DNA from: Gammaproteobacteria bacterium
GTDB taxonomy: Bacteria > Pseudomonadota > Gammaproteobacteria > Eutrophobiales > Eutrophobiaceae
NCBI GenBank assembly: GCA_041984885.1
Contig: JBHIXH010000001.1
Span: 50,365 to 114,364 of the forward strand
DNA: 64,000 bases
Direction of reading: 5' to 3'
Part shown: positions 33,855-56,296 of the stretch, piece after piece
Layout: every line of letters starts with the position of its first letter
How positions within the stretch are numbered: the first letter of the stretch is position 1
Translations under genes and position numbers: made by a program
The notes under the pieces: model-generated
Database searches by the model: none
Told to the model about the DNA's origin: nothing
The model's input: the letters and a program-made list of their open reading frames with translations, nothing else

Positions 33855-33882
33855 TGTTATACGTTCTCTTATTATTCGTTAA

Positions 33883-38928: not shown

Positions 38929-38985
38929 AAGCTTATTCTTTCTTGCTTATCTGTTTCCCGGGAAACAATGTAAATTGAAAAATAA

Positions 38986-39243: not shown

Positions 39244-39296
39244 AATACCACCCTATAAGTTCAATGAAGCTTTAGGACAGTTTAAGAATTAACAGT

Positions 39297-39920: not shown

Positions 39921-41125
39921 TAAGCATTTCCAGTTTGTTTAACATTTATTATCGATGCAGACTTTTTCTGACCCGCAGATCTCAATATATAGTCAGTGAT
40001 TTGTTGCATAGGTTTTCTTAATCGTTCAATGTCAGCAACAATGTAACCTGCAGTCACATCAGGTATGGAATGATTGAGTAACCTTTTTAGAGCATAAGCT
40101 GGTATATTGAGACTTTCAGCAATTGTCGCAAATGTTCGTCGTAGATCATGAGGACAAAAAGTTACTTTTGATTCCTCAGCAACTAAACGATTAGCATTAT
40201 CTATGACACTTATGTGACCATTACCATGCCTAGCTGAAAATACATAAATTCCTTTCGATTTATTTATTCTGCTTTTCAGAATTTCGTACAAAAAATCACT
40301 CAGTGGAAGGGTATGGGATCTGTGATTTTTTGTATCCAGAACTGTTAGTGTTTTAGATTCAAGATCTACCTGGTCCACTTTTAAAGTTTTGGCTTCTCCA
40401 CTTCTAAGACCAGTAAATAATAATGTGAATAAGTATGCCCTCACATTTTCAGGTTGGTTTACTACTGCTGCAAACCAAGGTTTTAACTGAGATTGCTTTA
40501 TTACGGTTTGACGGCGTTCAATCCTATACCATCTTTTAGTATCTGATAATCGCTTGACTGGATTAGCAGTAATGATTGGAATTCCCTCCGAATCAGTATA
40601 TTGAATCATCGCATGTGAAAATATTGCTCTTAAATATTTCATAGCCAAATTTGCCTGAGCATGACTCTTGTCACCAATCTCCTTGTGTTTTTTTACACAC
40701 ATATCAGGCGTTATGGATAACAATGGTTTATTCATCCAGGACCTTAAATAACGACCAAGACAAGAGCGCATATCCATCACTGTTCGTGGTTTAAGATTTT
40801 TTGAATAAATATAATCATTAAGTCCATTTTCTACAGTTGCGCTTTTAAGCTTCGCTTTTTGTTTATTCGCAACAGGATCTCCGCCTTTAATTATTTCTCC
40901 TATTAACTTTCTGGCTTCTTTTCTTGCTCCATCTGGAGCCATTTCATGAGATTTACAAATTGTGAGTCTTTGAGACTTACCTTTAACCCTACGCTGTAGT
41001 ACGTAACTCATCGCACCGTTTGAAGTAACTCTAACTCCAAAGGACGGTAATTCATCGTCCCAAATAATTTGATATCCTGTATCAGGAATTGATAGGCTTT
41101 TGAGATTTGTTTTCGTTAGCTTCAT
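39920..41125 (-). CDS. int: Tyrosine-type site-specific integrase (P4-like)
   Basis: N-terminal arm-binding DUF4102-like region (MKLTKTNLKSL...YQIIWDDELPSFGVRVTSNGAMSY). C-terminal catalytic motifs (HDLRRT...; ...LNHS...). Adjacent to attR. Confidence 0.9.
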   Translation of the reverse strand: MKLTKTNLKSLSIPDTGYQIIWDDELPSFGVRVTSNGAMSYVLQRRVKGKSQRLTICKSHEMAPDGARKEARKLIGEIIKGGDPVANKQKAKLKSATVENGLNDYIYSKNLKPRTVMDMRSCLGRYLRSWMNKPLLSITPDMCVKKHKEIGDKSHAQANLAMKYLRAIFSHAMIQYTDSEGIPIITANPVKRLSDTKRWYRIERRQTVIKQSQLKPWFAAVVNQPENVRAYLFTLLFTGLRSGEAKTLKVDQVDLESKTLTVLDTKNHRSHTLPLSDFLYEILKSRINKSKGIYVFSARHGNGHISVIDNANRLVAEESKVTFCPHDLRRTFATIAESLNIPAYALKRLLNHSIPDVTAGYIVADIERLRKPMQQITDYILRSAGQKKSASIINVKQTGNA

Positions 41126-41143
41126 AGTCCGTCCGTTTAATCA

Positions 41144-41161
41144 TGTAAGCACTATGTAAGC
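41144..41161 (+). repeat. Tandem TGTAAGCA motifs next to the integrase start (candidate arm-type sites)
   Basis: TGTAAGCACTATGTAAGCA. Same heptamer as at the island left end (22911-22929). Confidence 0.4.
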
Positions 41162-41277
41162 ATAGTAATTAAAACTCCTTAGTACAATAACGGACTTGAT
41201 ATAAACTATATATTATTGTTTTATATGAGTATTAAAAGATAATAAAATTTATGTGTAATTATTAGAAATTAAATAAA

Positions 41278-41329
41278 ACGGACTCTGACTCCGTCAGTAG
41301 AGGTTCGAATCCTCTACCCCCAGCCAATT
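41278..41329 (+). repeat. attR: direct repeat of the 3' 49 nt of tRNA-Gln (+3)
   Basis: ACGGACTCTGACTCCGTCAGTAGAGGTTCGAATCCTCTACCCCCAGCCAATT is identical to 22818-22869. Confidence 0.85.
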
Positions 41330-41553
41330 TAAACGGATTCTCTTAGCTTCACCGCTTTAACCCTGCCTTTCATTTTCTTCTGGGGTAATGATGCTGCGGT
41401 TGAAGTTTTATGATCACAGGCAACCTGATCCATTTCACCACTTAGCGGGTTCCAGAATTTGATTTCACGCTCCTGCTTGATCGTGACCGGCTGAAGTATG
41501 TACTCATCTCGCCGGGCGCTGTCTTTCGTCATCATCTTGTATAAGAAAATCAT
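41329..41553 (-). pseudogene. Duplicated C-terminal fragment of the radical SAM gene at 52272-53627
   Basis: The 74-aa ORF is ~97% identical to the last ~64 aa of the 451-aa radical SAM protein. The underlying DNA, 41327-41520, is ~97% identical to 52270-52470. Confidence 0.7.
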
Positions 41554-41556
41554 AAA

Positions 41557-42750
41557 TTATCCAAACTGTCCGTCTATCCCGGGCCGGAGCCAGATCGGCA
41601 CATACACAATCGCAAACAGCACGAAAGCTATTATCCACAGCATTTGTGATATCAATATCCAGACTGAATAATATTCGATGGTCAGCAGTGGAATAAATAC
41701 ACGAACAACAGCACCCAGTAATAGCAGGACAAATGTAAGGGTAACCAGGGAAGATGGCTTATAAACGTTTCTTCCTGTATGCCCGAGTGTCACACGTGCC
41801 ATCATGCTGGCTGTTACCATACCAATGCCACCATAGGTCATCGCATGTATGGCGATAAATTGAGACACATCAGAGAAAACACTGACCGCAAACAGCAGGA
41901 AGCCGATAACAATGAATAACATGGCCACGTGCAAACTCCAGAGCATCGGCTTTTTCCAGATCCCAGGTGTATACCAGCCAACAAGTCGAATGAAGTAAAT
42001 ACTAAACAATATAATCGCCAAATAACCGGACAATAAACCGGTATGCAAAAACAGTTCGGAAATAAAAAAGAGCAGAAATACCAGCAGACCGACAAGTGTT
42101 ACCCATTTCGGATTGTAAAGAAGGACAGGATAGCCAACACCACGCTCGGTAAAAAAAGGGATCACCCTGCCACCAATTGTTAATACCAGGCCAACAATCA
42201 GATACAAACCTCCATAGAGTCCCCAAAACGTACCTCTTGGCAAATACCCCATTAATCCAAGATAAAAGACAAGATTGGCAATGCCCAGCAATACAAGCTT
42301 TGCGAGAATTCCAAGTTGGTTATAGTGACGCGATTCTATTACAGGAGTTGCGACTGCCACAATCAGGCCTGATATAAATAAAATATCAAGCACACCGGCA
42401 TACACTACGAAGTCTGAACCAGACAGAAATAAAATACGGCTGAATGCCCAAACACTGAATAACACAGCCAGCGGCTTGCCATTTATTGTTTGCTTACCAG
42501 TCCAGTTTTTCACCGCTGTTAACAGAAACCCTGCGACGACAGCGAGACAGTAACCAAAAATCATTTCATGCGCATGCCATTGAAAAGCGGAAAGACTCCC
42601 CATTGGCATGGCGGGATTAAAGGTGTAGATCAGCATCCAGGTCACTACCGAGATGATCGAATAGATTACAGCGCCAAGGAAAAACGGCCTGAATCCAAGA
42701 TCAAACAGTGCAAATCTTTCGTTTTTATTTGCTGATATCAAGTGAGGCAT
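41557..42750 (-). CDS. nnrS: NnrS-family membrane protein (haem-copper, NO-stress associated)
   Basis: ~12-TM protein with an NnrS-like N-terminus (FALFDLGFRPFFLGA...). Confidence 0.75.
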   Translation of the reverse strand: MPHLISANKNERFALFDLGFRPFFLGAVIYSIISVVTWMLIYTFNPAMPMGSLSAFQWHAHEMIFGYCLAVVAGFLLTAVKNWTGKQTINGKPLAVLFSVWAFSRILFLSGSDFVVYAGVLDILFISGLIVAVATPVIESRHYNQLGILAKLVLLGIANLVFYLGLMGYLPRGTFWGLYGGLYLIVGLVLTIGGRVIPFFTERGVGYPVLLYNPKWVTLVGLLVFLLFFISELFLHTGLLSGYLAIILFSIYFIRLVGWYTPGIWKKPMLWSLHVAMLFIVIGFLLFAVSVFSDVSQFIAIHAMTYGGIGMVTASMMARVTLGHTGRNVYKPSSLVTLTFVLLLLGAVVRVFIPLLTIEYYSVWILISQMLWIIAFVLFAIVYVPIWLRPGIDGQFG

Positions 42751-43675
42751 GTTTTAAGTCGTTTCGTTTAGCTTCATATACCTGAAGATGTGACAAGGCA
42801 TACCCCAATAATTTGGTTGATAAATTCTTTTCTGTACCTAGTTTTACTAATTCACCAAATATCTCATTAACCTCTGTCTGCCTGCCTGACTGTATATCTC
42901 TAAGCATCGAAGCTGTATAGTCAGAATTTATGTCGGTTAATAGCTCAGTATATTTCTTCATGGTATTCTCATCAGGTCTATTACGGTACGCTTTCGCAAT
43001 GTCGACGCACTCATGAAATAACTCAAGAATAAATTCTCGTCCGCTTTCAGTTTTCATAATTTCACCTACACTTCCCCTGAAAATGCAGGTTGCACCGGCA
43101 AGTGCCGCCAAAAAAATATATTTTTGCCACATATCGTGCTGGATATGGGTAGAAAATTTGTATTCCAGTTTTGTTTTTGATAACTGATCAAGAAATGACC
43201 GACTTATTGCCTCCTGATCGAAATGTCTGATACCGAATTGAATGCGATGAAACTGGTTCAGGTGTTGTATGTTTCCTGTCCCATCCTGTTCCAGGGCCAG
43301 ATGTACGAGACCACCCATTACAGCTTCCCGAGTAAAAACATCATCCAGAAGCTTTAAGTGAGACACCCCGTTTAATAATGGCAATATGTTTGTTTCTTTA
43401 TCCGCAACCTTTTGAATGTCGTTGACTGCTTGCATTAATGCATAGGATTTACATGCAAGTATTACAACATTGAAACCCGGCAGTAATTCCTTTGATGTAA
43501 TACACTTTGGAGTCAGACACAGATTCCCCAGCTGACTGTAAATATTCAGGCCATTTTCTTCAATGACGTTGCGTTTTTCCTCTCTTACCAGGAACGTAAC
43601 GTCTGCGCCAGACTCGATTAAACGCCCACCGATATAACCTCCAACTGCACCAGCACCAAGGATAAGAATGCGCAT
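42725..43675 (-). CDS. 2-dehydropantoate 2-reductase family (ApbA/PanE-like) NAD(P)-binding oxidoreductase
   Basis: MRILILGAGAVGGYIGGRL Rossmann motif. The family is recognised from the N- and C-terminal domains. Confidence 0.7.
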   Translation of the reverse strand: MRILILGAGAVGGYIGGRLIESGADVTFLVREEKRNVIEENGLNIYSQLGNLCLTPKCITSKELLPGFNVVILACKSYALMQAVNDIQKVADKETNILPLLNGVSHLKLLDDVFTREAVMGGLVHLALEQDGTGNIQHLNQFHRIQFGIRHFDQEAISRSFLDQLSKTKLEYKFSTHIQHDMWQKYIFLAALAGATCIFRGSVGEIMKTESGREFILELFHECVDIAKAYRNRPDENTMKKYTELLTDINSDYTASMLRDIQSGRQTEVNEIFGELVKLGTEKNLSTKLLGYALSHLQVYEAKRNDLKHASLDISK

Positions 43676-43677
43676 GC

Positions 43678-44280
43678 TTATACCGTAATAATTCTATCCA
43701 TCGGGATGTCATGTGATTGCGGATAGATTGTATCCAGGCGCGATGTGACCAGGCCCAACCCGATTGCATGCGGGCGATGACCAAGGTGTGCAATGGTTCG
43801 ATCATAGTAACCACCCCCATAGCCGAGTCGGTACTGGCTGTCGTCGAACCCAACCAGCGGCACCAGTAATACAGATGGTTCCACAGTCGTCTTGTCTACC
43901 GGCACCGGGATGTTCCAGATGCCGGGTTTCAGTTTTGACGACGGTGTCCATGGTCGAAACTCCATCGGTGCGCCGGCGCTGGCGACAACCGGTAGTGCAG
44001 CGGCCCAGCCATTATCGAGCTGTTGCCTGACAAGGTCACGCAGATCGAACTCACCTTTAATTGGCCAGTAGAAACCAATAATGCCCGGCTCCATCAGCGA
44101 TAGAACTTCCTGCAGCACGACATATAATTCCTCTGTTTTGTTTTTTCTTTCCTTTCTGCCAATCTTGATTCTTGTGCCTATCTGCAATTCACGCTGCACT
44201 TTTCTCCAGTGTCGTATGGATTGCCAGTCACCTGGCTCTACTGCAGGGATTTCCGGAATTTCTTTATCAGCACTCATCAT
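43678..44280 (-). CDS. 5-formyltetrahydrofolate cyclo-ligase family protein
   Basis: GFDDSQYRLGYGGGYYDR is the MTHFS signature region. Confidence 0.7.
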   Translation of the reverse strand: MMSADKEIPEIPAVEPGDWQSIRHWRKVQRELQIGTRIKIGRKERKNKTEELYVVLQEVLSLMEPGIIGFYWPIKGEFDLRDLVRQQLDNGWAAALPVVASAGAPMEFRPWTPSSKLKPGIWNIPVPVDKTTVEPSVLLVPLVGFDDSQYRLGYGGGYYDRTIAHLGHRPHAIGLGLVTSRLDTIYPQSHDIPMDRIITV

Positions 44281-45821
44281 ACATGTGCACTCTTGTTGGC
44301 CATCTTGATATTCGCGACATGGTTGATGAGCATGTCATTCAAGTCTTCCTGCAGGGCTGTATTACTGTTGGTTATAGCCAACTGTTTTATTTTTTTTACT
44401 ACCCAGGCCTGTCCCTTGTTCAAAAAACCAATTCGCTCCTCAAGGTCTCTTATCTTGATCGCTTTTTCATAGAAATTACCGACACGGCGCGATGGCGTCT
44501 GCCCCATGCGATATAACCACGTTGCCAGCATTTCACACCAGCGTACTTCATCCTGGTAAATGGACTGGAAAACTTCCCGGTATTTAGTATCCCTGCAATC
44601 AAGCATGGAGCGGATGGTGACGCGGGCACCGGCACGTTCTGCAGCCAGCAATTCCTTAAGTACCGGAATGATCTCGTGGCTGGCCGGCATAACTTCACTG
44701 GCGGTTTGACCCTGGAAGCACGGCGAGGAATACATTTCGATATCATCGCCACACCATGAACCCGTGTCATTCGTGCCGGTAAAAAGTCTCTGCTTTGCCT
44801 CGGTGACCATTCTGTTCAAAATAGTAGCCGCAGGCTCGATTCGATTTACCCGGTAGGCGCCGCAACCGGCATAAATGGGCATGGCTTCCAGGTCACCGAC
44901 CGTGTTCCTGAGTGGAGAATCGGTGCTGCGCAGGTATACCGGTCGCTGTCCTTCCTTGCCAATCACGACGCGGGGCTGACTGTCTACCTGTACATTCATT
45001 GTTGCTTCACGGGTAACGCTGTTCGGAATCACTCGCGTTTGTGCACCGTGCGGCCAGTTAATATGAAATAAACCGGTCAGGATTGTTTCATCCTGCTTAA
45101 GGTTAATAATCTTTCGCTTGTGGTAGTCATTAGCAAACGATTCTTTCGAGGCGAGAAAAGCCGTACCGACGACAACTCCATCAGCACCTCTTTGCAGTTG
45201 GTCGGCAAGATCACGGCCATCAACAATGCCACCGGCGGCGAGAACCGGAACCTCTGCGATACGCAATACACGCGGTAACAGTTCCTTTACCGACAAAGAG
45301 CCACGCACGTGACCACCTGCCTCAACGCCTTGTGCTATCAACATATGGGCACCTGCTGTCAATGCTGCGTCGGCGTCCTGTTCAGTCCCGACCTGGTGTA
45401 CGACCAGGATGCCCGCATCCCTGAGAGTTTTAATTACATCGGGATAGATGTCCCAGAACAGGCAGACCGAGGCTACCTGTTCCTTGATAAGCATGTGGAC
45501 TTGTTGTAGTAGCAGCTGCTGGTCTGTTGCCGCAGGGATAATATTCACACCAAATTCAGCATCGGTGTTTGCCTTGACCTTTTGAATCTCAGAGCGGATA
45601 AGCTCCGGCGTTTCGCGCACCATACCCAGGAACCCGTAACCGCCGGCCTCAATGACTGCAGTAACCAGTTCCGAACGGGAAACACCTCCCATACCCGCCA
45701 GCACGATCGGGTACTGGCAACCAAGCAGGTCACAGGCCATGGTATGCAAGCCGGACTTGATTTTATTTTTCATGAAATTGCGCCCTCGCCATTCAGGATT
45801 GCTGTTGTCCGACATAGTCAC
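44277..45821 (-). CDS. Nitronate monooxygenase (NMO/2-nitropropane dioxygenase-like FMN enzyme) with ~180-aa C-terminal extension
   Basis: NMO motifs are present (YPIVLAGMGGVS; AQGVEAGGH; VLAAGGI). An additional C-terminal domain of unknown function follows (…EVRWCEMLATWLYRMG…). The start may be an internal Met at 45773. Confidence 0.65.
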   Translation of the reverse strand: MTMSDNSNPEWRGRNFMKNKIKSGLHTMACDLLGCQYPIVLAGMGGVSRSELVTAVIEAGGYGFLGMVRETPELIRSEIQKVKANTDAEFGVNIIPAATDQQLLLQQVHMLIKEQVASVCLFWDIYPDVIKTLRDAGILVVHQVGTEQDADAALTAGAHMLIAQGVEAGGHVRGSLSVKELLPRVLRIAEVPVLAAGGIVDGRDLADQLQRGADGVVVGTAFLASKESFANDYHKRKIINLKQDETILTGLFHINWPHGAQTRVIPNSVTREATMNVQVDSQPRVVIGKEGQRPVYLRSTDSPLRNTVGDLEAMPIYAGCGAYRVNRIEPAATILNRMVTEAKQRLFTGTNDTGSWCGDDIEMYSSPCFQGQTASEVMPASHEIIPVLKELLAAERAGARVTIRSMLDCRDTKYREVFQSIYQDEVRWCEMLATWLYRMGQTPSRRVGNFYEKAIKIRDLEERIGFLNKGQAWVVKKIKQLAITNSNTALQEDLNDMLINHVANIKMANKSAHV

Positions 45822-46146
45822 TGATCACCCTGGCGTGATTGCACTTCCGGTCACGGGCAGCATAGACCAGAGTCACGTTACCCAAGCCCGTAAGTTCGAG
45901 TAAACGACTCATCGCTGCCGTATTTTGTTCGAGCTCACGGGTATACTGTTCATGAAACTTGTCCCACCGTTCCGGTTTATGGCCAAACCAGGTGCGCAGG
46001 TCATTACTGGGAGCAATCTCTTTCAACCACAGGTCTATCTTTGCATCTGTCTTGCGGATACCGCGCGGCCACAACCTGTCTACTAAAACGCGCATGCCAT
46101 CAGATTCATCAGCACTGTCATAGATACGTTTTATCCTGATGTTCAT
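45793..46146 (-). CDS. DUF488 family protein (YeaO-like)
   Basis: RIYD...DGMRVLVDRLWPRG...LWLKEIAPS..LRTWF pattern. Confidence 0.7.
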   Translation of the reverse strand: MNIRIKRIYDSADESDGMRVLVDRLWPRGIRKTDAKIDLWLKEIAPSNDLRTWFGHKPERWDKFHEQYTRELEQNTAAMSRLLELTGLGNVTLVYAARDRKCNHARVISDYVGQQQS

Positions 46147-46158
46147 AATAGACAGTCG

Positions 46159-46539
46159 TTACCAATGCCAGACCTGGTCATAACGCTCGAACAGGGAAGG
46201 TAATTGGTCGCGCCTGACGTACCTGATTCCACCGATGTGTTCGCGCTGGCTCAACCCCCTGCTTTTCAGGTCTTCCTGCAAGACAAATATTTCCACCCCC
46301 TTGTCGGCGAGCTTGATTAGGCCGCCCTCGATATCCGTTGGCTGCGTCTGCTTCCAGGTGCCGAATTGCAACAGCGGAGGTTGCTGCTGGACCAGGACAT
46401 AATTAACGGCATTGCCGGTAAGCAACACGGAGATGTCCGCCTCGATGCCACGCATGGCATGGGTAAGCCAGATAATTGTATCGTCCTGCTCTTCCAACGT
46501 GCCGCGATAGGCCGTTTCTACTACCTGTAAAGCGCGCAT
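46159..46539 (-). CDS. DsrE/DsrF/DsrH (TusBCD)-like small protein, third gene of triplet
   Basis: 126 aa. Size, position and composition are consistent with the third (DsrH/TusB-like) member. Assignment is tentative. Confidence 0.4.
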   Translation of the reverse strand: MRALQVVETAYRGTLEEQDDTIIWLTHAMRGIEADISVLLTGNAVNYVLVQQQPPLLQFGTWKQTQPTDIEGGLIKLADKGVEIFVLQEDLKSRGLSQREHIGGIRYVRRDQLPSLFERYDQVWHW

Positions 46540-46541
46540 GG

Positions 46542-46997
46542 TTATCTCGTTCCTATTACCAGCGAGTTAACCGATGCTGATGCCAGTTTCCAGAAATCGG
46601 CCGGCGAACCGCGTCTGACACCAGGCACGGTCTCATCGATACCTCTCTCGTCGGCACACAATCCGCAGTTCACCCACTCAATCTGTCCATTGTTCTGCCT
46701 GGCAAGTTGTAGTAATTCACTCACCCATTCTTTAGGAAGCGGGTGGTTCTCTTCCTCCCGCGTGGTGCCATGAACTGCGTTCGCATGCGGTTTTTGCTTG
46801 TTAAAAGAGAGGTGCACGCCACCTTCGTAGGCAAACACGTTGATGTGGTATCCGCGTGCTGCGGCAACGTGGAGGAGTCTGAAAAACGAGGTGGTACGTG
46901 CACTCTCGAAAGGCGGGTCCATTATTGCAAAGGTCAATGTGGTTTGTTTATTCATCACCACTAGTGCCATATTGTTTTTGTGCCTTCTGCAAGGCAA
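46542..46997 (-). CDS. DsrE/DsrF-like family protein, second gene of triplet
   Basis: About 140 aa if started at the Met at 46970 (MALVVMNK...). DsrE-like alpha/beta pattern with conserved Cys (NCGLC). Confidence 0.5.
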   Translation of the reverse strand: MPCRRHKNNMALVVMNKQTTLTFAIMDPPFESARTTSFFRLLHVAAARGYHINVFAYEGGVHLSFNKQKPHANAVHGTTREEENHPLPKEWVSELLQLARQNNGQIEWVNCGLCADERGIDETVPGVRRGSPADFWKLASASVNSLVIGTR

Positions 46998-47287
46998 TCA
47001 ATAATTTTATCTATCGCAGATAGACGTATATTTTTTTTCAGATCAACTTTCCCGATGGCACGCTCTTTTGCAGAAAAGTCATCTACTTCAATGTGTATGC
47101 CCTGCCGTATTAACGTCGCAAACGTACGGTTAATAGAACTTTTACGCGCAGGAAACACACCATTCTGTATCAAAAACAGCCTGACCGAGTGGCCGCCGTT
47201 TTTCAGGTTGATTGCAAGGCGATAAAAGTTTTCTGTCTCCCTGCATTCGAATGGATCTCTTGATGAGATCAGCATGTATCGACTCAA
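46961..47287 (-). CDS. DsrE/DsrF-like family protein, first gene of triplet
   Basis: 108 aa. N-terminal MLISSRDPF...LAINLKNGGHSVRLFLIQNGV resembles DsrE/TusD-like proteins. Overlaps the cysI stop by 4 nt. Confidence 0.5.
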   Translation of the reverse strand: MSRYMLISSRDPFECRETENFYRLAINLKNGGHSVRLFLIQNGVFPARKSSINRTFATLIRQGIHIEVDDFSAKERAIGKVDLKKNIRLSAIDKIIDCLAEGTKTIWH

Positions 47288-49041
47288 TGGTTTTCTCCCT
47301 TTTGCCTGTTCTTGAAATCGGGACCGCTGGTGACCGCCTCAACGTATCCCTGTCGTATGACGTAATCTCCAAACGCTTCATTTTCGAATCGTTCGTTTGC
47401 GTAGTTCACAATTATTGTTTCCAACTCGTTTAATATTTGTTCCTCCCCGATGTTTTCACGGTAGAGTCGCGACAGTCTTGTCCCGTTACACGCTCCACCC
47501 AGGTACAGGTTGTATTTACCCGGCGCTCTGCCGGTTAACCCGATTTCTGACAGGTACGGCCTCGAACAACTATTGGGACAACCACTCATACGGAGCGTAA
47601 TCGCCTGCTCAGCCAGGCCGTAATGCTTGAGCATCGCTTCGATTTTCGTGATGAGTACCGGCAGGTACCGTTCACTCTCGGCCATCGCCAGGCCACAGGT
47701 GGGAAACGCTACGCAGGCAATAGCATGTTGTCTGACCGGGCCCTGCTTCAGTCCATTATCGAGACGATACTTTTCCAGTATTTCCTCAATCTGCTGTTTT
47801 TGTTCTGCATGAACGCCGGCAATCATCATGTTTTGATTGGGTGTCAGTCGAAATTCACCGCTATGCACCGATGCCAGTTCGTGCAGGCCGGACATTAACC
47901 CGACACCGTCATGGTCCTTGATTCGTCCGTTTTCTACGAACAGCGTACAGTGCAGCCTGTTATCCTCGGCTTCTTGCCAGCCAGGCGTATCCGTGTTCTT
48001 TTCAAAATTAAAAGGTTTTGATTGCGCAAGGGTGATGCCCGTTCTGGCTTCCAGTTCAGACTTGAACCAGGCCAGACCATTATTTTGAATGGTGTATTTA
48101 AAACGCGCCTGTGCCCTGTCGACGCGATCACCATAGTCGCGTTGAATAGTCAGTGTTTCCCTCACCATGTCGAAGATCGCGCCTTTCTCGATATAACCCA
48201 GGACGTCGGCCAGCCTGGGATAGGTGGTCGGTACGCTATCGGTGTGACCCATACCACCACCAACGCAGACATTAAATCCACACAAGCGGTTGTTGCTCTG
48301 TATTGCGATAAATCCCAGGTCTTGTGAGAAAACGTCGATATCGTTTACCGGTGGCACCACGATTCCAATCTTGAATTTACGTGGCAGGTAAGTCGGACCG
48401 TACACTGGCTCTTCTTCCCCCGCCGTGTGTCCCGGCTCATCCAGCCAGGTCTCCGGGTAGGCACCTGTTTTCGGAATAAACTCGTTACTTATCTGCCTTG
48501 CAGTTGTATAAACTTCAGTGTGCAATCCGGACATGGCCGGGTTAACCGCACACATGACGCCCCTGGTATCGTCACCACACGCAGCAATGGTATCCAGGCC
48601 GACAGTCTGCAAGGACTGGATCACCGGTTTTAGATCCTGTTTCGGGACCTTGTGCAATTGAAAGGTCTGCCTGGTAGTAATACGTAATGCGTCGTCTGCA
48701 TGTCGTCCGGCAATCTCCATCAGTGCCAGTAACTGCCTTGCAGTGCATACGCCACCGGGTAACCGGATCCTGACCATGAACGTGTATTCAGGTTCCAGTT
48801 TCTGGTGTCGGCGCTCGTCGCGAATATCCCTGTCGTCCTGCTGATACATACCATGGAACTTGAGCAGTTTCGCATCTGTGTCCTTTACCGCGGCGGTTAC
48901 CGGGTCATGCAGACTCTCGGTAATGGAACCACGAAGATAGTTGCTCTGTTGCTTAAGCAATTCATCCGGGCTTAACTCACCGATTGGTCGGGATATATCC
49001 CTGCTACGGGCAGGCTTGTTGCTTTGGGAATTGGTCGTCAT
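47284..49041 (-). CDS. cysI: Sulfite reductase [NADPH] hemoprotein beta subunit
   Basis: 585 aa with a canonical CysI N-terminus (ESLHDPVT...LKFHGMYQQDDRDIR). Siroheme/4Fe-4S Cys motifs (CGDDTRG...; SGCPNSCS). Confidence 0.9.
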   Translation of the reverse strand: MTTNSQSNKPARSRDISRPIGELSPDELLKQQSNYLRGSITESLHDPVTAAVKDTDAKLLKFHGMYQQDDRDIRDERRHQKLEPEYTFMVRIRLPGGVCTARQLLALMEIAGRHADDALRITTRQTFQLHKVPKQDLKPVIQSLQTVGLDTIAACGDDTRGVMCAVNPAMSGLHTEVYTTARQISNEFIPKTGAYPETWLDEPGHTAGEEEPVYGPTYLPRKFKIGIVVPPVNDIDVFSQDLGFIAIQSNNRLCGFNVCVGGGMGHTDSVPTTYPRLADVLGYIEKGAIFDMVRETLTIQRDYGDRVDRAQARFKYTIQNNGLAWFKSELEARTGITLAQSKPFNFEKNTDTPGWQEAEDNRLHCTLFVENGRIKDHDGVGLMSGLHELASVHSGEFRLTPNQNMMIAGVHAEQKQQIEEILEKYRLDNGLKQGPVRQHAIACVAFPTCGLAMAESERYLPVLITKIEAMLKHYGLAEQAITLRMSGCPNSCSRPYLSEIGLTGRAPGKYNLYLGGACNGTRLSRLYRENIGEEQILNELETIIVNYANERFENEAFGDYVIRQGYVEAVTSGPDFKNRQKGENH

Positions 49042-49044
49042 GTC

Positions 49045-50907
49045 TCAGTACACATCCTTTTGATAGCGTTTCTGCCGGGACAATAATTTCAGGTATTCAG
49101 TTGCCTTTTCTTCGCTCAAGTCCGCCTCGTTGCTGATGATCTTTACCAGGGCCTGGTTGACATCCTTCGCCATGTGACTGGCATCACCACAGACATAAAT
49201 ACAGGCACCTTCCTGTAGCCAGTGGTAGATATCGCGGCCGTTTTCCAACAGCCGATGTTGGACATAGATCTTCTGTTTGCTATCACGGGAAAATGCGAGA
49301 CTGATACGGTGCAGGAAACCCATGCGTAACCATTGTTGCCACTCAACCTGGTACAGGAAATCTGATCGAAAGTTTCGCTCACCGAAAATGAGCCAGGATG
49401 GTCCGTGTTTCACACCAGTAGCCTCACGCTGCTGCAAAAAAGCACGATAAGGTGCGATACCGGTACCGGCCCCTATCATGATGATCGGGGTGGATGCATC
49501 CTCGGGGAGTCGAAAGTTATTATTGTTTTGAATATAAACTGCGGCCTGCTGCCCTTGCTCCAGTCCGCCACACAGGTAGGACGACGCTGCACCGAATCGC
49601 TGGCTGCCGTTTAACTCGTATTTGAGCCTTGCAACCGTGATATGAACCTCGTCCGCCACCATCTCCTGGCTGGATGCAATCGAGTACATTCTCGGTTGTA
49701 TCTTCCTCAGGCCGTTTACCAGTATCTCTGGCTGTATGTCAGCGACAGGATATTGCCGGATTACATCCAGGACGTGGTTTCTTGATGCAAACTCGAAGAA
49801 TTGCGCGCGCTTGTGCGGCAGGGACAGATCTTTCAGTAGTTCTGCCTTGCACAGTGAATACCATGTCTGCAGAAATTCCGGTGTCAGGATCGACAGTTCA
49901 TGGTCATGGGTCAGGCTATCTGCAATTGTCTTACCGTTGTCGGCCAGAGGTTGCGTGCCGTTAAATTTTAACTCGGTCAATATTTTATTGACCAGTCGCA
50001 CGTTATTAACAGGACGAACACCCAGCGCATCACCGGGCTTGTAGTTCAGGCCACTGCCGTCAAGTGAGAATTCGACATGCGCAACATGCTTCGTGGAGTG
50101 ACGGCCGGTAATCCTGATAATATCCAGAACCTCGGCTTCGAACGGTCGTCGCTTGTCATGAACCTTGTCTTTATCCCGCGAAACCTGTCCGGGTTCTGAA
50201 ACCTGTATGACAGGTGCGCTGATCCTGACAGCAGACGCAAACAGTTCCTTCAATCCTGACTTTATCGAGGCAAACCATTGTTCCGCTTGTTCATCATAGT
50301 CAACATCACAATCCAGCCTGGCTGCGACAGGTTTGCCACCTAGTTCACTAAAACGCCTGTCGAGTGTTTTTGCCGCCTCGCAAAAAAACTCGTAAGACGT
50401 ATCACCGAGACCCAGCACGGCATAGTGCAGGTGACCAAGAGCGGGTGCCTTGCGGCCTTCAAGTTCTTCAAAGAAGCCCCTCGCGGGTTCTGGCGGATCA
50501 CCATCGCCGTGTGTGCTGGTTATAGCGATAACACAGTGTTCCTGTTTCAGTTGTTGTACCTTGTAATCTTCAAGGTTATTGCAATTAACGGTATGACCTG
50601 CATCCCGCAATATCTCCGCCAGTTCTTCCGCCAGTTCTTCCGAGTTACCCGTTTCTGTTCCGTATAAAACTCGGATTGGCGGAGGCGCCTGTTGCACCAC
50701 TGCCTTATGTTTATCCGACATGCCCGCAACAGGCGTACTCTCCAACGCCGTTGCCCTGCAACGGGCCCAGCCGGCAAAGTAACCGCTGATCCACAGTGCT
50801 TCATCCGGTGACGTTTGCCTTGCCAACGTTTCAACCTGCTCGAGGATGTCATCCGCCAACACTGTCGCGGACAGATTGGCTACCGGCGTATCCATTACAG
50901 CGCCCAT
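49045..50907 (-). CDS. cysJ: Sulfite reductase [NADPH] flavoprotein alpha subunit
   Basis: Flavodoxin-like FMN domain, then FAD/NADPH domains (RMYSIASS...; IMIGAGTGIAPYRAF). 620 aa. Confidence 0.9.
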   Translation of the reverse strand: MGAVMDTPVANLSATVLADDILEQVETLARQTSPDEALWISGYFAGWARCRATALESTPVAGMSDKHKAVVQQAPPPIRVLYGTETGNSEELAEELAEILRDAGHTVNCNNLEDYKVQQLKQEHCVIAITSTHGDGDPPEPARGFFEELEGRKAPALGHLHYAVLGLGDTSYEFFCEAAKTLDRRFSELGGKPVAARLDCDVDYDEQAEQWFASIKSGLKELFASAVRISAPVIQVSEPGQVSRDKDKVHDKRRPFEAEVLDIIRITGRHSTKHVAHVEFSLDGSGLNYKPGDALGVRPVNNVRLVNKILTELKFNGTQPLADNGKTIADSLTHDHELSILTPEFLQTWYSLCKAELLKDLSLPHKRAQFFEFASRNHVLDVIRQYPVADIQPEILVNGLRKIQPRMYSIASSQEMVADEVHITVARLKYELNGSQRFGAASSYLCGGLEQGQQAAVYIQNNNNFRLPEDASTPIIMIGAGTGIAPYRAFLQQREATGVKHGPSWLIFGERNFRSDFLYQVEWQQWLRMGFLHRISLAFSRDSKQKIYVQHRLLENGRDIYHWLQEGACIYVCGDASHMAKDVNQALVKIISNEADLSEEKATEYLKLLSRQKRYQKDVY

Positions 50908-50923
50908 GCGAAGACAGCTTGCA

Positions 50924-51127
50924 TCAGGGGTTGAGTATGCTTAAAGCAACGGCATCCAAATCGTTTAACTTCTGCATCTTGAAGGCGGCTTTTGATGCAC
51001 CGCAGTAAGGACAGACCCAGTCCTTGGGGACATCCTCCCAGTGCGTGCCGGCCGGGATACCTTCATCGGGAATCCCCTTGTCCTCGTCGTAGATAAAATC
51101 ACACAATTCACAAACCCATATACTCAT
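50924..51127 (-). CDS. Rubredoxin
   Basis: The two CxxC knuckles (WVCELCDFIYDE...WVCPYCGA) are spaced exactly as in rubredoxins. Start set at the Met at 51127. Confidence 0.8.
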   Translation of the reverse strand: MSIWVCELCDFIYDEDKGIPDEGIPAGTHWEDVPKDWVCPYCGASKAAFKMQKLNDLDAVALSILNP

Positions 51128-51189
51128 CGACGTTCTCCTCGCTGTGTTTAACCCAAGCAAGGCTTTGTAGCCCGTGATCCAGTCTGATT

Positions 51190-51211
51190 ATTTGCTTTAT
51201 ATTAAGCAAAT
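51190..51211. promoter_or_regulatory. Palindromic LTTR-box-like site in the divergent rubredoxin-cysJI / lysR promoter region
   Basis: ATTTGCTT-TATATT-AAGCAAAT is a perfect 8-bp inverted repeat. It lies between the rubredoxin start and the LysR gene start. Confidence 0.35.
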
Positions 51212-51259
51212 AAATAATATTTATACTTAAGTTCAATTATTTCTATATTAAAAACGATC

Positions 51260-52120
51260 ATGGATATAGAAGTTGCTCGTACCTTTCTTGTGATCTCGTC
51301 GGCAGGTAGCTTCGTTCGTGCCGCCGAGCAATTACACCTGACCCAGACCGCGGTCACGGCCAGGATCAAGTCACTGGAAGAACAACTGGGTCGGACCCTG
51401 TTCGTGCGTAACAAGGCCGGGGCTAAATTGACACCTGCAGGGCAGGAGTTCATCAAATATGCAACTTCACTGGTCCAGATTTGGGAACGAGCGAGGCAAC
51501 AGGTCGCCGTTCCGCCCGGGCGACGCGCTATCGTTTCAGTCGGCGGTGAACTGAGCCTATGGAACCCGTTGTTGCTGAACTGGTTGGTGTACATCAGAAA
51601 GCAATCGCCAGATATCGCGATACGGGCACATGTTGATATACCGGAACGATTACTGGATAAAGTGCAGACCGGCATACTGGATGTGGCTGTGATTTATGAA
51701 CCGCAAAAACGTCCAGGTTTAAAAACCCGGTTGTTAATGGAAGAAAAACTGATTGCGGTCAGTACGGAACCGGGCACTACGGAGGTAGGTAATGCGGGTT
51801 ATGTATATATAGATTGGGGACAACAGTTCTCGACACACCACAACCATGCATTCCCACACCTCAGGGACACGGATATGCACGTTGGGCTCGGACCGTTGGC
51901 GTTAAGGTATATCCTGGCCATGGGCGGTAGCGGCTATTTCAGAGTACGGGCTGCAAAACCATACATGCAAAGAGGACGCCTGTTTCGTGTGGAGGGTGCA
52001 CCGGAGTACACATACTCGGCATACATGGTGATCTCTGATCATGCAGATGCAGAGGTAGTAAACATTGTTTACAACTCCTTAAGGACCGCTTCTTCTATTG
52101 AATATGAAGATTGGGTTTAG
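51260..52120 (+). CDS. LysR-family transcriptional regulator
   Basis: N-terminal HTH (FVRAAEQLHLTQTAVTARIKSLEEQLG) plus a LysR substrate-binding domain. Divergent from the rubredoxin-cysJI operon. Confidence 0.85.
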   Translation: MDIEVARTFLVISSAGSFVRAAEQLHLTQTAVTARIKSLEEQLGRTLFVRNKAGAKLTPAGQEFIKYATSLVQIWERARQQVAVPPGRRAIVSVGGELSLWNPLLLNWLVYIRKQSPDIAIRAHVDIPERLLDKVQTGILDVAVIYEPQKRPGLKTRLLMEEKLIAVSTEPGTTEVGNAGYVYIDWGQQFSTHHNHAFPHLRDTDMHVGLGPLALRYILAMGGSGYFRVRAAKPYMQRGRLFRVEGAPEYTYSAYMVISDHADAEVVNIVYNSLRTASSIEYEDWV

Positions 52121-52251
52121 AAATGAATTTTTTATTCTGTTGCTGAAATTTCATACACATATAGATACGAATCAAAGTGACTATTTTAAAATCAAGAAAA
52201 TTCGAACTGAAGCTGGGCCCGAAGGGGTGGAGTACCTGGATGTATGGAATC

Positions 52252-52273
52252 ATCCTCTACCCCCAGCCAATTT
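52252..52273 (+). repeat. Third, short att-like copy of the tRNA-Gln 3' end
   Basis: ATCCTCTACCCCCAGCCA+ATTT is 18 nt identical to the tRNA 3' end. The ~196 bp flank that follows is the same as after att copy 2. Confidence 0.6.
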
Positions 52274-53627
52274 AAACGGTTTCTCTCAGCTTCACCGCTT
52301 TAACCCTGCCTTTCATTTTCTTCTGGGGTAATGATGCCGCGGTTGAAGTTTTATGATCACAGGCAACCTGATCCATTTCACCACTTAGCGGATTCCAGAA
52401 TTTGATTTCACGCTCCTGCTTGATCGTGACCGGCTGAAGTATGTACTCATCTCGCCGGGCATTGTATTCACACATGGAAACCGGGCCGGACGGTGTCATG
52501 TTCTTAAAGACGCAGGCATCCAGACGTTCCTGATCCAGGTTGCAGGCGTCCATAAAATTATGCACAAAAAAAGACAGGCTGCTTGCCTTGCCTCTGGCGC
52601 GGTATAAATCTGCGCGCATTTGTAGCAGTTTTGATACTGACCACTTGATAAATTCCAGCGCCTGCAGCGGGTGTCGAATCAGCCAGGCAGATAACTGCAG
52701 CGCCGTGGTGAAGGCGCGGTTTCGATCCGCAACAATATTGCGTGTCTCTGCCTGCATACGACCGGTGAAGTCGGCATCGTCAAACAGGTTATAACATCGA
52801 TCATTGGTCACGACTGTCATGCCATAACGGTTGCACTGCGGATGACCGGTGCGTATCGCACGAAAATTGATCTCGGTACCGGCGACCTGTTCTATTTTCT
52901 GCCAGACGGTATCTGTACTGATGATCGTATCGCGCTGACGCTGTACTCCGCGACCGGTGTCTGCCTGCAATTGAAACGACGCCGTACGTATGTTCTGTGC
53001 ATGTTCGATAAAAAATCGTACCAGCTGTGGAATCTCGTGGAAGTTTTCGCGACAGACCGTCGTATTAAACACGACGGACAGGCCAAGTCCCCGCGTGCGA
53101 TTAATGTATTCACTACGAATCCGGTTCAACGCCTGCTCGCTGTTATAACCTTTACGTTCCTGCGTCAGGTCGACATGAAATGCGACGTCATTCAGCCCGG
53201 CCCTGGCAAGACGTTGTAACAGGGGTCGGGTCGCGCGAATGCCGTTCGTCATTAATGTTGAACGCATGTTGTTGCGTCTGATGTAGTCAATGATCTCGAC
53301 CAGCTCATCCTGATCTCGTAATGTCGGATCACCGCCGGTCACCTGGATATCCGTGTAGTCCCCGTAATATTGATGGATGCGGTCGATGCGTTTGAATATC
53401 TCCTGCAGCGGAATGTCATGCACCGCCTCGGAATGATCGGACAAGTAACACAGGGTGCAATCAAGGTTGCAGCGCTGCGTTATTTCCAGTGCCACGCAAC
53501 CGACGGACCAGCGTAATCCCATCTGCTGATTAGGTGAACAAAGCCCTTGTTGTTGCATCACCTGTCGGGCTTTTTTAAGGCTGAGTTCAGGGTTCATGGT
53601 CCCGGCTACGACTGACATTCTGTTCAT
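52272..53627 (-). CDS. Radical SAM protein with C-terminal Cys-rich (SPASM/twitch-like) domain
   Basis: CNLDCTLCY (CxxxCxxC) motif, GGDPTL (GGEP-like) motif, and 6-7 additional Cys in the C-terminal third. Overlaps the DUF547 gene by 4 nt. Confidence 0.8.
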   Translation of the reverse strand: MNRMSVVAGTMNPELSLKKARQVMQQQGLCSPNQQMGLRWSVGCVALEITQRCNLDCTLCYLSDHSEAVHDIPLQEIFKRIDRIHQYYGDYTDIQVTGGDPTLRDQDELVEIIDYIRRNNMRSTLMTNGIRATRPLLQRLARAGLNDVAFHVDLTQERKGYNSEQALNRIRSEYINRTRGLGLSVVFNTTVCRENFHEIPQLVRFFIEHAQNIRTASFQLQADTGRGVQRQRDTIISTDTVWQKIEQVAGTEINFRAIRTGHPQCNRYGMTVVTNDRCYNLFDDADFTGRMQAETRNIVADRNRAFTTALQLSAWLIRHPLQALEFIKWSVSKLLQMRADLYRARGKASSLSFFVHNFMDACNLDQERLDACVFKNMTPSGPVSMCEYNARRDEYILQPVTIKQEREIKFWNPLSGEMDQVACDHKTSTAASLPQKKMKGRVKAVKLRETV

Positions 53628-54427
53628 TCCCGGGTTCTGATGTCGTTCAGTGCCCAGTCATAATCAAGGAACCGCACTCTCACCCGGGTGAAGCTCCCCT
53701 GCTTGCTGGACTTCAGTTGTTTTTGTAATTCGGCATTATCGGTTATGTAGGGTGCGACCCAGGCTTCAACGGAACCGGCGGCGGTATCAAAGTCCTTTCG
53801 ATACCAGTTAAAAATGGACGATAACTCAAGTTGCTGCTTTTTCCTGTCAAAACGATTACGTTCAGGATCAGTGAGAAACAACCTGGTAGCATGTTCCAGT
53901 TGATCATTTAATGTGTCAGCGACGTAGGCCTGTTTTATCAGTGGCGGACAACCACGTGAGGCACAGTTCACGGCAAAATGAATTCTTGGCTCATTGAAGT
54001 TGTCACGTATCAGATCATGTTCAACATAATCCAGGTTCGCTGGCTCGCCAAACAGCGTGAAAAATTTCCTGTCCCACGGTGAGGAGAAGATCAGTCCGCC
54101 CAGATCCCGAATGGAATCGATTTCCGGATAGTTATCGATGATTAATTTTAATGTCAGTGCGTTATACGTATTAATCAAAAATGCCAGCCGCTGGTTATCA
54201 TTCCATTGATTGAACTCAGCCTCACTCACCGCTTCGATCTGTTTAATGTAAGCGAGCAACTGATTCGGGTTCGCTGCCAGCGTTGAATAATCAACCGAGG
54301 TTTGATGGCCATGTTCAACAACAACACGCTGCAATAGCTGATTGAACTCCGCGTGGGAATGGTCGAATGCGAATACAGACTGGATGCCAAAACCAATAAC
54401 AAGCAGGCACCTGCACAGATAAGACAA
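53624..54427 (-). CDS. DUF547 domain protein with signal peptide
   Basis: 267 aa with a hydrophobic N-terminus. Central region contains a CASRGCP motif. Co-transcribed with the radical SAM gene. Confidence 0.6.
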   Translation of the reverse strand: MSYLCRCLLVIGFGIQSVFAFDHSHAEFNQLLQRVVVEHGHQTSVDYSTLAANPNQLLAYIKQIEAVSEAEFNQWNDNQRLAFLINTYNALTLKLIIDNYPEIDSIRDLGGLIFSSPWDRKFFTLFGEPANLDYVEHDLIRDNFNEPRIHFAVNCASRGCPPLIKQAYVADTLNDQLEHATRLFLTDPERNRFDRKKQQLELSSIFNWYRKDFDTAAGSVEAWVAPYITDNAELQKQLKSSKQGSFTRVRVRFLDYDWALNDIRTRE

Positions 54428-54655: not shown

Positions 54656-56296
54656 ATGAAAGCGAGTGACCTGTTTGTGCAGTGCCTGGAAAACGAGGGT
54701 GTCAAATACGTGCTCGGCGTGCCAGGCGAGGAAAACCTCGACATGCTGGAGTCGATTCGCAACTCGAACCTGGAACTGGTATTGACCCGGCATGAACAAT
54801 CCGCCGGCTTCATGGCAGCAACGATCGGACGCTTGACCGGTTCTCCGGGTGTCTGCATGTCAACGCTCGGACCCGGCGCTACCAATTTCGTCACCGCTGC
54901 CGCCTACGCCCAACTTGGCGCGATGCCGATGTGCATGATCACCGGACAAAAGCCGGTGCACTCGAGCAAACAGGGACATTTTCAGATCATTGATACGGTC
55001 GACATGATGCGACCCATTACCAAATACACCAAGCAACTCGGCCACGGTAACCGCATACCTTTTGTGATTCGCGAAGCGTTCAAGATTTCCGAGGAGGAAC
55101 GACCCGGCGCCGTGCATATTGAATTACCCGAGGACGTGGCCAGCGAGGATACACATACCGATCCGATTCCGATATTCAAGGTACGGCGACCGGATGCAAA
55201 TGACAAGGCAGTACGTATCGCAGTAGATATGATCCAACAGGCGAAATCGCCATTGATACTGATCGGTGCCGGCGCGAATCGTAAACGTGTATCTAAAATG
55301 CTTTGTCAGCTCATTGATAAAACCGGCATCCCTTTCTTCCTGACGCAAATGGGCAAAGGCGTGATTGCCGAAGACCATGACCTGTGCCTTGGCACGGCTG
55401 CATTATCTGACAAGGATTATTTGCACTGTGCGGTTGAGCGCGCTGACCTGATTATCAATGTGGGTCATGACGTGATTGAAAAACCACCGTTCTTTATGGA
55501 GCAAGATGGTGCCAGGGTCATTCATGTGAATTACGTCGATGCGAGTGTTGACGAAGTCTATTTTCCACAACACGAAGTCATCGGTGATATCGCCAACGCA
55601 CTCTGGCAGATTTCGGAATCGATTGAAAAACAGGGTCACTGGGACTTTGACTACTTCCTGCGCGTCAAGCAGTTTGTTGATAAAAAAATCGCAGAAAAGA
55701 ACGATGACGACCGCTTTCCGATTATTCCGCAGCGACTGGTTGCCGATGTTCGTTCAGTCATGGGCCGCGAAGATATTATTGCTCTCGATAATGGTATTTA
55801 TAAAGTCTGGTTCGCACGCAACTATCGCGCGCTCGCGCCAAATACAGTATTGCTCGACAACGCCCTGGCGACAATGGGTGCCGGGCTGCCTTCCGCCATG
55901 GCGGCAAAAATGATTTTTCCTGACAGGAAGGTGCTGGCTATCTGTGGCGATGGCGGGTTCATGATGAACAGTCAGGAACTGGAAACGGCCGTGCGCATGC
56001 AACAGGATCTGGTAGTGTTGATTCTTAATGACAGTTCGTACGGTATGATCCGCTGGAAACAACAGGGCATGGGGTTCGCGGATTTTGGTCTGGAATACAA
56101 TAACCCTGACTTTATCAAGTACGTTGAAAGCTATGGCGGTCATGGACATCGAATCGAATCGACCAATCAGCTATTGACGACGCTGGAAAAGACCCTGAAC
56201 TCACCGGGCGTACACCTGATCGATTGTCCGGTTGATTATTCAGAAAATACAAAAGTCCTGACGGAAGAACTTGAATCAAAGAAAGTCATTGAATAA
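54656..56296 (+). CDS. Thiamine-pyrophosphate enzyme, acetolactate synthase large-subunit-like
   Basis: N-terminal TPP-Pyr domain. The TPP-binding motif GDGGF...N is near the C-terminus (ICGDGGFMMNSQELETAV). Confidence 0.8.
   Translation: MKASDLFVQCLENEGVKYVLGVPGEENLDMLESIRNSNLELVLTRHEQSAGFMAATIGRLTGSPGVCMSTLGPGATNFVTAAAYAQLGAMPMCMITGQKPVHSSKQGHFQIIDTVDMMRPITKYTKQLGHGNRIPFVIREAFKISEEERPGAVHIELPEDVASEDTHTDPIPIFKVRRPDANDKAVRIAVDMIQQAKSPLILIGAGANRKRVSKMLCQLIDKTGIPFFLTQMGKGVIAEDHDLCLGTAALSDKDYLHCAVERADLIINVGHDVIEKPPFFMEQDGARVIHVNYVDASVDEVYFPQHEVIGDIANALWQISESIEKQGHWDFDYFLRVKQFVDKKIAEKNDDDRFPIIPQRLVADVRSVMGREDIIALDNGIYKVWFARNYRALAPNTVLLDNALATMGAGLPSAMAAKMIFPDRKVLAICGDGGFMMNSQELETAVRMQQDLVVLILNDSSYGMIRWKQQGMGFADFGLEYNNPDFIKYVESYGGHGHRIESTNQLLTTLEKTLNSPGVHLIDCPVDYSENTKVLTEELESKKVIE

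Follow-up and report, generated by a model that had tools for sequence, protein, structure and literature searches.

Segment B, a 10.7-kb block of metabolic genes in a Gammaproteobacteria bacterium (GenBank assembly GCA_041984885.1, contig JBHIXH010000001.1, positions 50,365 to 114,364 of the forward strand; this whole stretch of 64,000 nucleotides (nt) is called the window below), was found to be bracketed by a direct repeat, each unit of which joins an 18-nt core, the 3′ end of a tRNA-Gln(CTG) gene, to 199 nt of contiguous flank from the 3′ end of a radical S-adenosylmethionine (rSAM) gene. B has no integrase of its own, lies in a tandem array of attachment (att) copies at this tRNA gene, and is missing from the same locus in three relatives. 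We propose, with moderate confidence, that one crossover integrated a circle on which B was accompanied by the 18-nt core and a captured flank of 199 nt.

Three copies of a tRNA 3′ end delimit a tandem array

ARAGORN found a single tRNA in the whole window, an intact tRNA-Gln(CTG) that starts 95 nt 3′ of rpsI and the rpsI terminator hairpin, with degQ, hsp20, coq7, rplM and rpsI as the core genes on its left (rplM and rpsI by Pfam). Its last 18 nt, ATCCTCTACCCCCAGCCA, begin at the end of the T-loop and close with the encoded CCA. In the 64 kb this 18-mer has exactly three occurrences, at 22849, 41309 and 52252 and always on the + strand, which match the three att copies of the preliminary description; the chance expectation obtained from shuffles is 0.02 matches with three or fewer mismatches. 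The array comprises the following features.

22793-22866, + strand: intact tRNA-Gln(CTG), the integration target (ARAGORN)
22818-22866, + strand: att copy 1, which marks the tRNA-proximal end of island A; identity block of 49 nt that spans anticodon stem to CCA (repeat search, alignment)
22867-41277, no strand: island A, 18.4 kb, GC 0.30-0.43 (composition, Pfam)
39920-41125, - strand: tyrosine integrase of island A, Arm-DNA-bind_3 plus Phage_integrase (Pfam)
41278-41326, + strand: att copy 2, a displaced 49-nt tRNA 3′ fragment (repeat search, alignment)
41526-52251, no strand: cargo of segment B, 10.7 kb, GC 0.49 (Pfam, NCBIfam, composition)
52252-52269, + strand: att copy 3, an 18-nt tRNA 3′ fragment that opens the right copy of the 217-nt repeat (alignment, 18-mer scan)

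The 49-nt identity block runs 4 nt (AATT) beyond the CCA on both sides. The final 18 nt of att copy 2 (41309-41326) open the left copy of the 217-nt repeat, and att copy 3 begins 131 nt past the lysR stop at the end of segment B. The 5′ edge of the 49-nt copy falls on the 5′ side of the anticodon stem, and that of the 18-nt copy on the last two bases of the T-loop. Islander (PMC4383910) places the crossover subsites within tRNA genes at the anticodon loop, the T-loop and the T/acceptor junction. The boundaries of the att fragments of A and B coincide with recognised subsites, and recombination may have taken place exactly there; judged from these edges, the island A integrase appears to use another crossover position (the 49-nt block, at the anticodon loop) than B.

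Between tRNA-Gln and a kef-type antiporter gene, an interval of 33.5 kb holds island A, segment B and a third segment, C, composed of rSAM, DUF547 and a thiamine pyrophosphate (TPP)-dependent enzyme. Three att copies in direct orientation delimit adjoining segments, the minimum for a tandem array, and an intact tRNA stands at one end with displaced direct 3′ fragments beyond it, which is the arrangement by which Islander recognises an island. An own tyrosine integrase, another of its marks, is present in island A and absent from segment B. No fourth att copy closing segment C was found in the window, even with five mismatches allowed. The adjacency of rpsI and tRNA-Gln recurs in five related loci (L071, L075, L076, L159 and L160). 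Together with relatives in which the tRNA-Gln-to-Kef interval is short, the three att copies agree with the earlier proposal of a tRNA hotspot bearing a tandem array, and support tRNA-Gln(CTG) downstream of rplM-rpsI as such an integration hotspot.

A direct repeat of 217 nt reaches from the tRNA core into the rSAM gene

Alignment of the sequences opened by att copies 2 and 3 gave a long direct repeat, 41309-41525 against 52252-52468, of 217 nt and 97% identity. Upon ungapped re-alignment it resolved into a clean block of 209 nt (41309-41517) with four mismatches (41337, 41344, 41395 and 41449) and an 8-nt ragged border with three further mismatches, beyond which similarity is lost. The repeat unit, in which the 18-nt core is continued without a break by 199 nt of flank, brackets 10.7 kb; the flank portion corresponds to the 3′ end of the rSAM open reading frame (ORF). 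The preliminary description had reported a duplicated flank of ~196 bp and ~97% identity corresponding to this 3′ end, and the re-alignment confirms its coordinates and percentages.

41327-41525, - strand: r′, the last 63 codons and the stop of rSAM (alignment, codon comparison)
41329-41553, - strand: chimeric ORF of 74 amino acids (aa), in which the rSAM C-terminal fragment follows 11 new residues at the N-terminus (ORF list, translation)
52272-53627, - strand: rSAM gene, full length, 451 aa (Pfam; homologues align end to end)

The right copy of the flank is formed by the last 199 nt of rSAM (52270-52468), to which the 199 nt after the left core are 96.5-98% identical; r′ is clean to 41517 and ragged over 41518-41525, a border that we take as a novel joint, J1. 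The chimeric 74-aa ORF has no Pfam match, is not recorded as a called gene, and is probably a pseudogene remnant.

Over the 63 shared codons, r′ and the resident 3′ end (r) differ by three synonymous changes and one Ser/Thr replacement, with no frameshift and no stop. If about 1/4 of random changes are taken as synonymous, at least 3/4 synonymous changes gives P ~0.05. The differences look like those of functional alleles that diverged in different strains and were then joined, a history that the pattern fits, and they would be unexpected for a local duplication in which one copy was free to decay. Since the substitutions are allele-like, the divergence of 2-3% estimates the distance between donor and recipient and not the age of the event. 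The earlier argument that 3% divergence means a duplication that is not recent is therefore given up, and the event is left undated by these differences.

Segment B is an integrase-less metabolic operon of host-like composition

Eleven genes of B lie on the - strand, encoding NnrS, a PanE/ApbA-like protein, 5-FCL, an NMO-DUF6306 fusion, DUF488, a DsrH-like protein, two DsrE-like proteins, CysI, CysJ and rubredoxin, with lysR divergent on the + strand; Pfam agrees with the accessory gene list drawn up beforehand (nnrS to lysR), and CysI and CysJ pass the NCBIfam equivalog cut-offs. No integrase was found in B either by Pfam over the ORFs or by tblastn with the island A integrase, in agreement with the earlier claim that none lies between att copies 2 and 3. 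The genes that adjoin the two junctions are nnrS and lysR, neither of them an integrase, and no integrase remnant was found between lysR and the 18-mer. The only integrase of the window is that of island A, at the tRNA-distal end of the island and 152 nt from att copy 2, and tblastn across the window revealed no second copy or remnant of it.

In composition, B has a correlation of tetranucleotide z-scores with the core of 0.67-0.68, against 0.67-0.79 between core regions, and its GC content at third codon positions (GC3) is mostly 0.53-0.69, with nnrS (0.45), apbA (0.37) and one dsrE (0.42) as exceptions. For island A the corresponding tetranucleotide correlation is 0.41-0.52, and by composition this island is clearly foreign. 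A distinct composition is a supportive, not an obligatory, criterion for an island. A hairpin overlapping the 18-nt copy (52223-52262, GGGGTGGAG...CTCTACCCC) was no better than those of shuffled sequences (z = -0.76).

The right junction is reproduced in independent contigs

An artefact of assembly, in which a repeat is collapsed or falsely duplicated, is in our view extremely improbable. The sequence comes from a draft contig (142,434 bp), and the left junction was not recovered independently, both of which would leave room for such an error. Yet the two copies differ at 4-7 positions, and the longest exact run common to both is 68 nt, shorter than a sequencing read. Two Logan contigs from separate runs, L068 and L069, run from lysR through the 18-nt copy into the rSAM 3′ end and carry the variants specific to the right copy: one, from SRR32696350, is 100% identical to window positions 50038-52299, and the other, from SRR30684386, is 100% identical to 51021-52317. 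The latter stops exactly 30 nt past the last copy-specific variant (52287), and we infer that a k=31 graph would branch at this very point, provided that the same sample contains the second copy. An artefact was accordingly rejected on the copy-specific variants, the 68-nt maximum run and the Logan contigs across the right junction; the recovered contigs show this junction only, in its integrated form.

Segment B is an insertion relative to three related loci

The closest rSAM homologue besides the source contig was 66% identical, the closest homologue of the NMO-DUF6306 fusion 65%, and species-representative genomes reached at most 57% for rSAM. Exact look-ups of rSAM, of its database twin and of the 74-aa chimeric ORF gave no match, nor did a first metagenome scan with the NMO fusion; plasmid and phage searches gave distant matches only, at 50% for the NMO fusion and at most 33% for the island A integrase, with no useful context. 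The homology between r′ and rSAM ends at 41517-41525, and no collection searched yielded the tRNA-proximal end that B had originally, which leaves rSAM as the only known parent of the novel joint.

A search with DegQ found loci of closer relatives (L076/L077, L159 and L160; RpsI 92% and DegQ 72% identical). L076, L159 and L160 share the order rplM, rpsI, a small gene for an intervening-sequence protein, tRNA-Gln, a short ORF, DUF2189 and, ~1.4 kb downstream, Kef, which has the same orientation as kef of the window and is 63% identical to it in amino acids and 70% in nucleotides. Each of the three has one copy of the tRNA 3′ end, and none has B or rSAM. Because the tRNA-Gln-to-Kef interval of these loci is ~1.4 kb and lacks B, B is an insertion relative to them, and their synteny marks the conserved flanks of the hotspot, which are rpsI-tRNA-Gln (left) and kef (right). 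Absence from the same locus in relatives, a further mark used by Islander, is thereby found for B, the relatives in question being only ~72% identical in DegQ.

53624-54427, - strand: DUF547, segment C (Pfam)
54656-56296, + strand: TPP-dependent enzyme, segment C (Pfam)
56372-58006, + strand: kef-type K+/H+ antiporter, the conserved right flank of the hotspot (Pfam, synteny)

Segment C as a whole is absent from the tRNA-Gln-to-kef interval of L076, L159 and L160. The preliminary description had taken rSAM as the native flank, and this has to be revised: rSAM-DUF547-TPP is missing at the locus in these three, and kef is the first syntenic gene. The pair rSAM-DUF547 is conserved as a module among distant relatives, where no tRNA was found beside rSAM (0/38 loci).

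A second kind of locus was provided by L071, a contig of 2.75 Mb with an NMO 63% identical to that of the window. Its operon, in the order lysR, rubredoxin, cysJ, cysI, dsrE, dsrE, dsrH, DUF488, NMO-DUF6306, 5-FCL and apbA, is colinear with B and in the same orientation, and lies within 4.5 kb of a near-identical tRNA-Gln that is followed by rpsI, rplM, coq7, hsp20 and degQ. Against the window, the proteins encoded by the B genes show 58-88% identity and those of the core genes 51-75%. The GC content is 0.32-0.43 on the operon side of tRNA-Gln, over at least 17.5 kb and running off the locus (1-17560), and 0.49-0.51 on the rpsI-degQ side, with the switch exactly at tRNA-Gln and a difference of 13 points. 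No second att copy and no integrase were found within this locus.

Colinear B-like operons were found in L071, L073, L074 and L079, and operons of this type in L072, L073, L074, L079 and L163 sit in other contexts, so the operon moves between genomes. The operon type is widespread (LysR 45-90% identical) and occurs in many unrelated contexts, with an association to a tRNA in the window and L071 only. No homology past the lysR stop was found among relatives.

A proposed circle with captured flank, weighed against other origins

Site-specific integration into a tRNA gene duplicates only the identity block, in this case 18 nt, so that a captured flank or a step of homologous recombination is needed to account for the other 199 nt. 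In the series of events that we propose, segment C would already have adjoined tRNA-Gln before B arrived. In a sister strain, B would have lain between the tRNA and an 18-nt displaced fragment with its edge in the T-loop (tRNA-B-core-rSAM). An aberrant excision there would have joined, illegitimately, the tRNA-proximal end of B to a point 199 nt into rSAM (the joint at 41517-41525), and the excised circle would have gained flank on one side and perhaps lost its integrase end. One crossover between this circle of 10,943 bp, with the order core-r′-B, and the resident core-r-rSAM would give core-r′-B-core-r-rSAM, which is the order observed, and it could have been the work of RecA at any point of the 217 nt, or of a helper integrase acting on the 18-nt core. 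A direct repeat around 10.7 kb is the topology expected from a single crossover between circle and chromosome, and the lack of an integrase or remnant in B fits a defective or mobilised element. The host-like composition of B would be expected for a donor diverged by ~2%. Either the tRNA itself or the distal att of island A could have been the partner of the circle, and B need not be older than A, so the "decayed older island" of the preliminary description is not upheld; as the B core could recombine either with the tRNA core or with the core in the distal att copy of A, the order of arrival of A and B is not readable from the map.

Several points weigh against this proposal. The collections searched contained no conspecific genome, and they showed no donor arrangement, no empty tRNA-rSAM site and no circle junction. 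The left junction (41517-41556) has no independent read-level support, the 74-aa ORF and nnrS being absent from the Logan records. Only four substitutions carry the allele argument. There are no mobility genes among the genes of B, and its composition is not distinct from the host core, which leaves the att repeats as its sole usual mark of an island. The call of a low-GC island in L071 is made against just 4 kb of flanking core sequence. Finally, the T-loop position of the 18-nt boundary could be a coincidence, or the stump of a longer att left by a deletion that removed the integrase.

One alternative is that B is resident chromosomal DNA and that the two core-plus-flank copies arose by local rearrangement, through ectopic repair, gene conversion, or duplication with deletions. 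The match of B to the core in GC, GC3 and tetranucleotide usage and its lack of mobility genes would be expected of resident DNA, as would the housekeeping-type enzymes CysJ and CysI, and L071 adds the same operon in the same orientation, with tRNA-Gln within 4.5 kb, the same rplM-rpsI-coq7-hsp20-degQ flank, and identities that are similar for B genes (58-88%) and core genes (51-75%). However, the relatives that are closer than L071 (L076, L159 and L160, RpsI 92%) have Kef and not B at the locus, the tract that contains the L071 operon has a GC content 13 points lower than the core beside it, and operons of this type occupy unrelated contexts in L072, L073, L079 and L163. Moreover, no simple local mechanism gives a 217-nt direct repeat edged at the T-loop, and the substitutions are unlike the decay of a pseudogene copy in situ. 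B as ancestral core, a reading prompted by the L071 synteny, was downgraded on the low-GC tract of L071 and the near-empty Kef sites of the closer relatives, and we regard a resident origin as unlikely.

Two other routes retain an insertion. The target could have been the rSAM gene ~199 nt before its stop instead of the tRNA, after the manner of e14 and phage 21 in icd, where the target 3′ end is duplicated with mostly synonymous divergence. The element would then have brought a replacement 3′ end (52252-52468, reaching 18 nt into the abutting tRNA) in an in-frame fusion, and the displaced host end would be r′. The order of the parts is equally compatible with this route, under which one would find, as in the window, a target 3′ end duplicated on both sides of the insert, a gene that is still full length (451 aa) and differences that are mostly synonymous, as in the icd duplication. 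What makes it quite unlikely is that neither junction is adjoined by an integrase, that the putative core at 41517-41532 is only patchily similar to its counterpart (8/15), and that nothing comparable lies beside rSAM in 38 rSAM-bearing relatives; unlike in icd, the duplicated block takes in the tRNA 3′ core and has its limit at a crossover subsite of the tRNA, so its edge in the T-loop would have to be a coincidence. Alternatively, B could be a decayed island of the A type with a 49-nt att, from which a distal deletion took the integrase and the first 31 nt of att, r′ having been acquired separately. The integrase of island A adjoins its distal att (39920-41125 against 41278), so that one deletion could remove both, and B indeed lacks an integrase. 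This is very unlikely in our view: the 199-nt flank duplication is left unexplained and would still need a captured-flank or homology step, the deletion would have ended in the T-loop by chance, and the 131 nt from lysR to the 18-mer are dissimilar to the spacer between integrase and att in island A. Island A as the carrier of r′ was also considered and rejected, as integration of a circle of A, att and r′ at the 49-nt att puts r′ beside the intact tRNA and not distal to A.

The captured-flank circle admits a further, doubtful extension, in which B is a working "homology-armed" cargo block that persists and spreads within the species by means of its captured 217-nt piece of the tRNA-Gln/rSAM junction, the same lysR-cysJI-dsrEFH-like-NMO operon having been recruited independently to the tRNA-Gln hotspot in the window and in L071. 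The 217-nt piece would let B loop out and re-enter, by RecA or a borrowed integrase, at genomes that have this junction.

Relation to known elements

The structure is genome remodelling of an already known kind rather than a new mechanism, at a well-resolved tRNA hotspot; an integrase-less, host-like operon block with a captured arm of att plus flank is a modestly unusual feature of it. In the Campbell model, as for lambda gal and bio, aberrant excision carries host DNA contiguous with att and lacks functions of the opposite end. Segment B resembles these transducing forms in that host DNA contiguous with att is found from one side, and in that reintegration would place the element between direct repeats of att plus flank; it differs in having no phage genes or evidence of packaging, and no parent of the joint was observed. 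B also resembles cis-mobilisable elements (CIMEs), being att-flanked cargo without a recombinase that adjoins an integrase-bearing element at the same site, but the integrase of A seems to act at another crossover position (the 49-nt block), and no conjugation or mobilisation genes were seen.

Tandem island arrays at tRNA and tmRNA genes (Islander, and accretion of CIMEs with integrative and conjugative elements, ICEs) resemble the window in having an intact tRNA at one end and direct displaced 3′ fragments at the boundaries, in att copies of different length with edges at subsites (the anticodon loop for A, the T-loop region for B), and in a locus that varies among relatives. Unlike them, the window has an integrase in one segment only and a third segment without a distal att, and the repeat of B reaches 199 nt beyond the tRNA into the neighbouring gene. 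For Islander (PMC4383910) to accept a tandem, every member needs an integrase of its own, and annotation pipelines that require one integrase per island would merge or miss the array.

A metabolic operon with no mobility genes and a host-like composition is in this case still recognisable as horizontally placed by the geometry of its repeats, that is, an att core plus captured flank. The repeat copies also carry a warning, as the divergence between such copies measures donor-recipient distance and not the age of the event. Should B turn out to be excisable, it would offer a naturally occurring case of island transfer assisted by homology.

Further features of the locus

The cargo of island A, a metal-resistance island, consists of two efflux operons of the RND heavy-metal type (RND/MFP/OMF), a MerR, a MerC-like protein and uncharacterised ORFs (Pfam); one MFP carries a heavy-metal-binding domain, and ORFs of 600 aa (37126-38928) and 207 aa (39297-39920) have no Pfam match.

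In both copies of the repeat, the rSAM stop lies 2 nt from a tRNA-type CCA (52270-52274 and 41327-41331) in convergent orientation, which leaves no room for a terminator for either gene. So tight an abutment of a tRNA end and rSAM is typical of an island junction, and fits the absence of rSAM-DUF547-TPP in relatives.

Around tRNA-Gln itself, a gene for a four-helix-bundle "23S rRNA intervening sequence protein" lies between rpsI and tRNA-Gln in L076 (7157-7504), L159 (7163-7510) and L075 (121-468), and is lacking at this position in the window and in L071. L075 (Logan, SRR31628436) is the closest relative, with DegQ 83% and RpsI 92% identical and a tRNA-Gln identical to that of the window, and its contig ends exactly at the tRNA 3′ end (tRNA at 1-74); such an end would be expected if the sample has att repeats or strain variation at the hotspot.

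The low-GC tract of L071 also encodes a cytochrome P460, a different NnrS (26% identical to that of the window), a glutathione S-transferase (GST), a TauE fragment, an aminotransferase, an XRE-type regulator and an ankyrin protein. An ORF of the window 21 kb left of the tRNA (559-1158, - strand, 199 aa) has ~72% nucleotide identity to L071 15901-16298, beside the GST, and such a pair of this gene and GST also stands beside a reduced operon in L072 (12209-13353).

The core of B (window 44277-52120) is a widely conserved and apparently uncharacterised operon, seen also in L071 (3600-13030), L073 (3600-13030), L079, L115, L137, L143 and L146-L148. Metagenomes from sea and soil contain it again, with LysR identities as low as 45%. 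Its LysR is 88-90% identical even where the enzymes are only 58-70% identical. A dedicated pathway for sulfur or nitro compounds is suggested by the coupling of a sulfite reductase with an FMN oxidoreductase and a DsrEFH-like sulfur relay. A second reductase of the NIR_SIR type is seemingly encoded in the conserved core (window 8484-10139, - strand, 551 aa), judged by synteny with L075 13326-14372; if it is real, the CysJI of B may be an extra copy and not the cell's only sulfite reductase.

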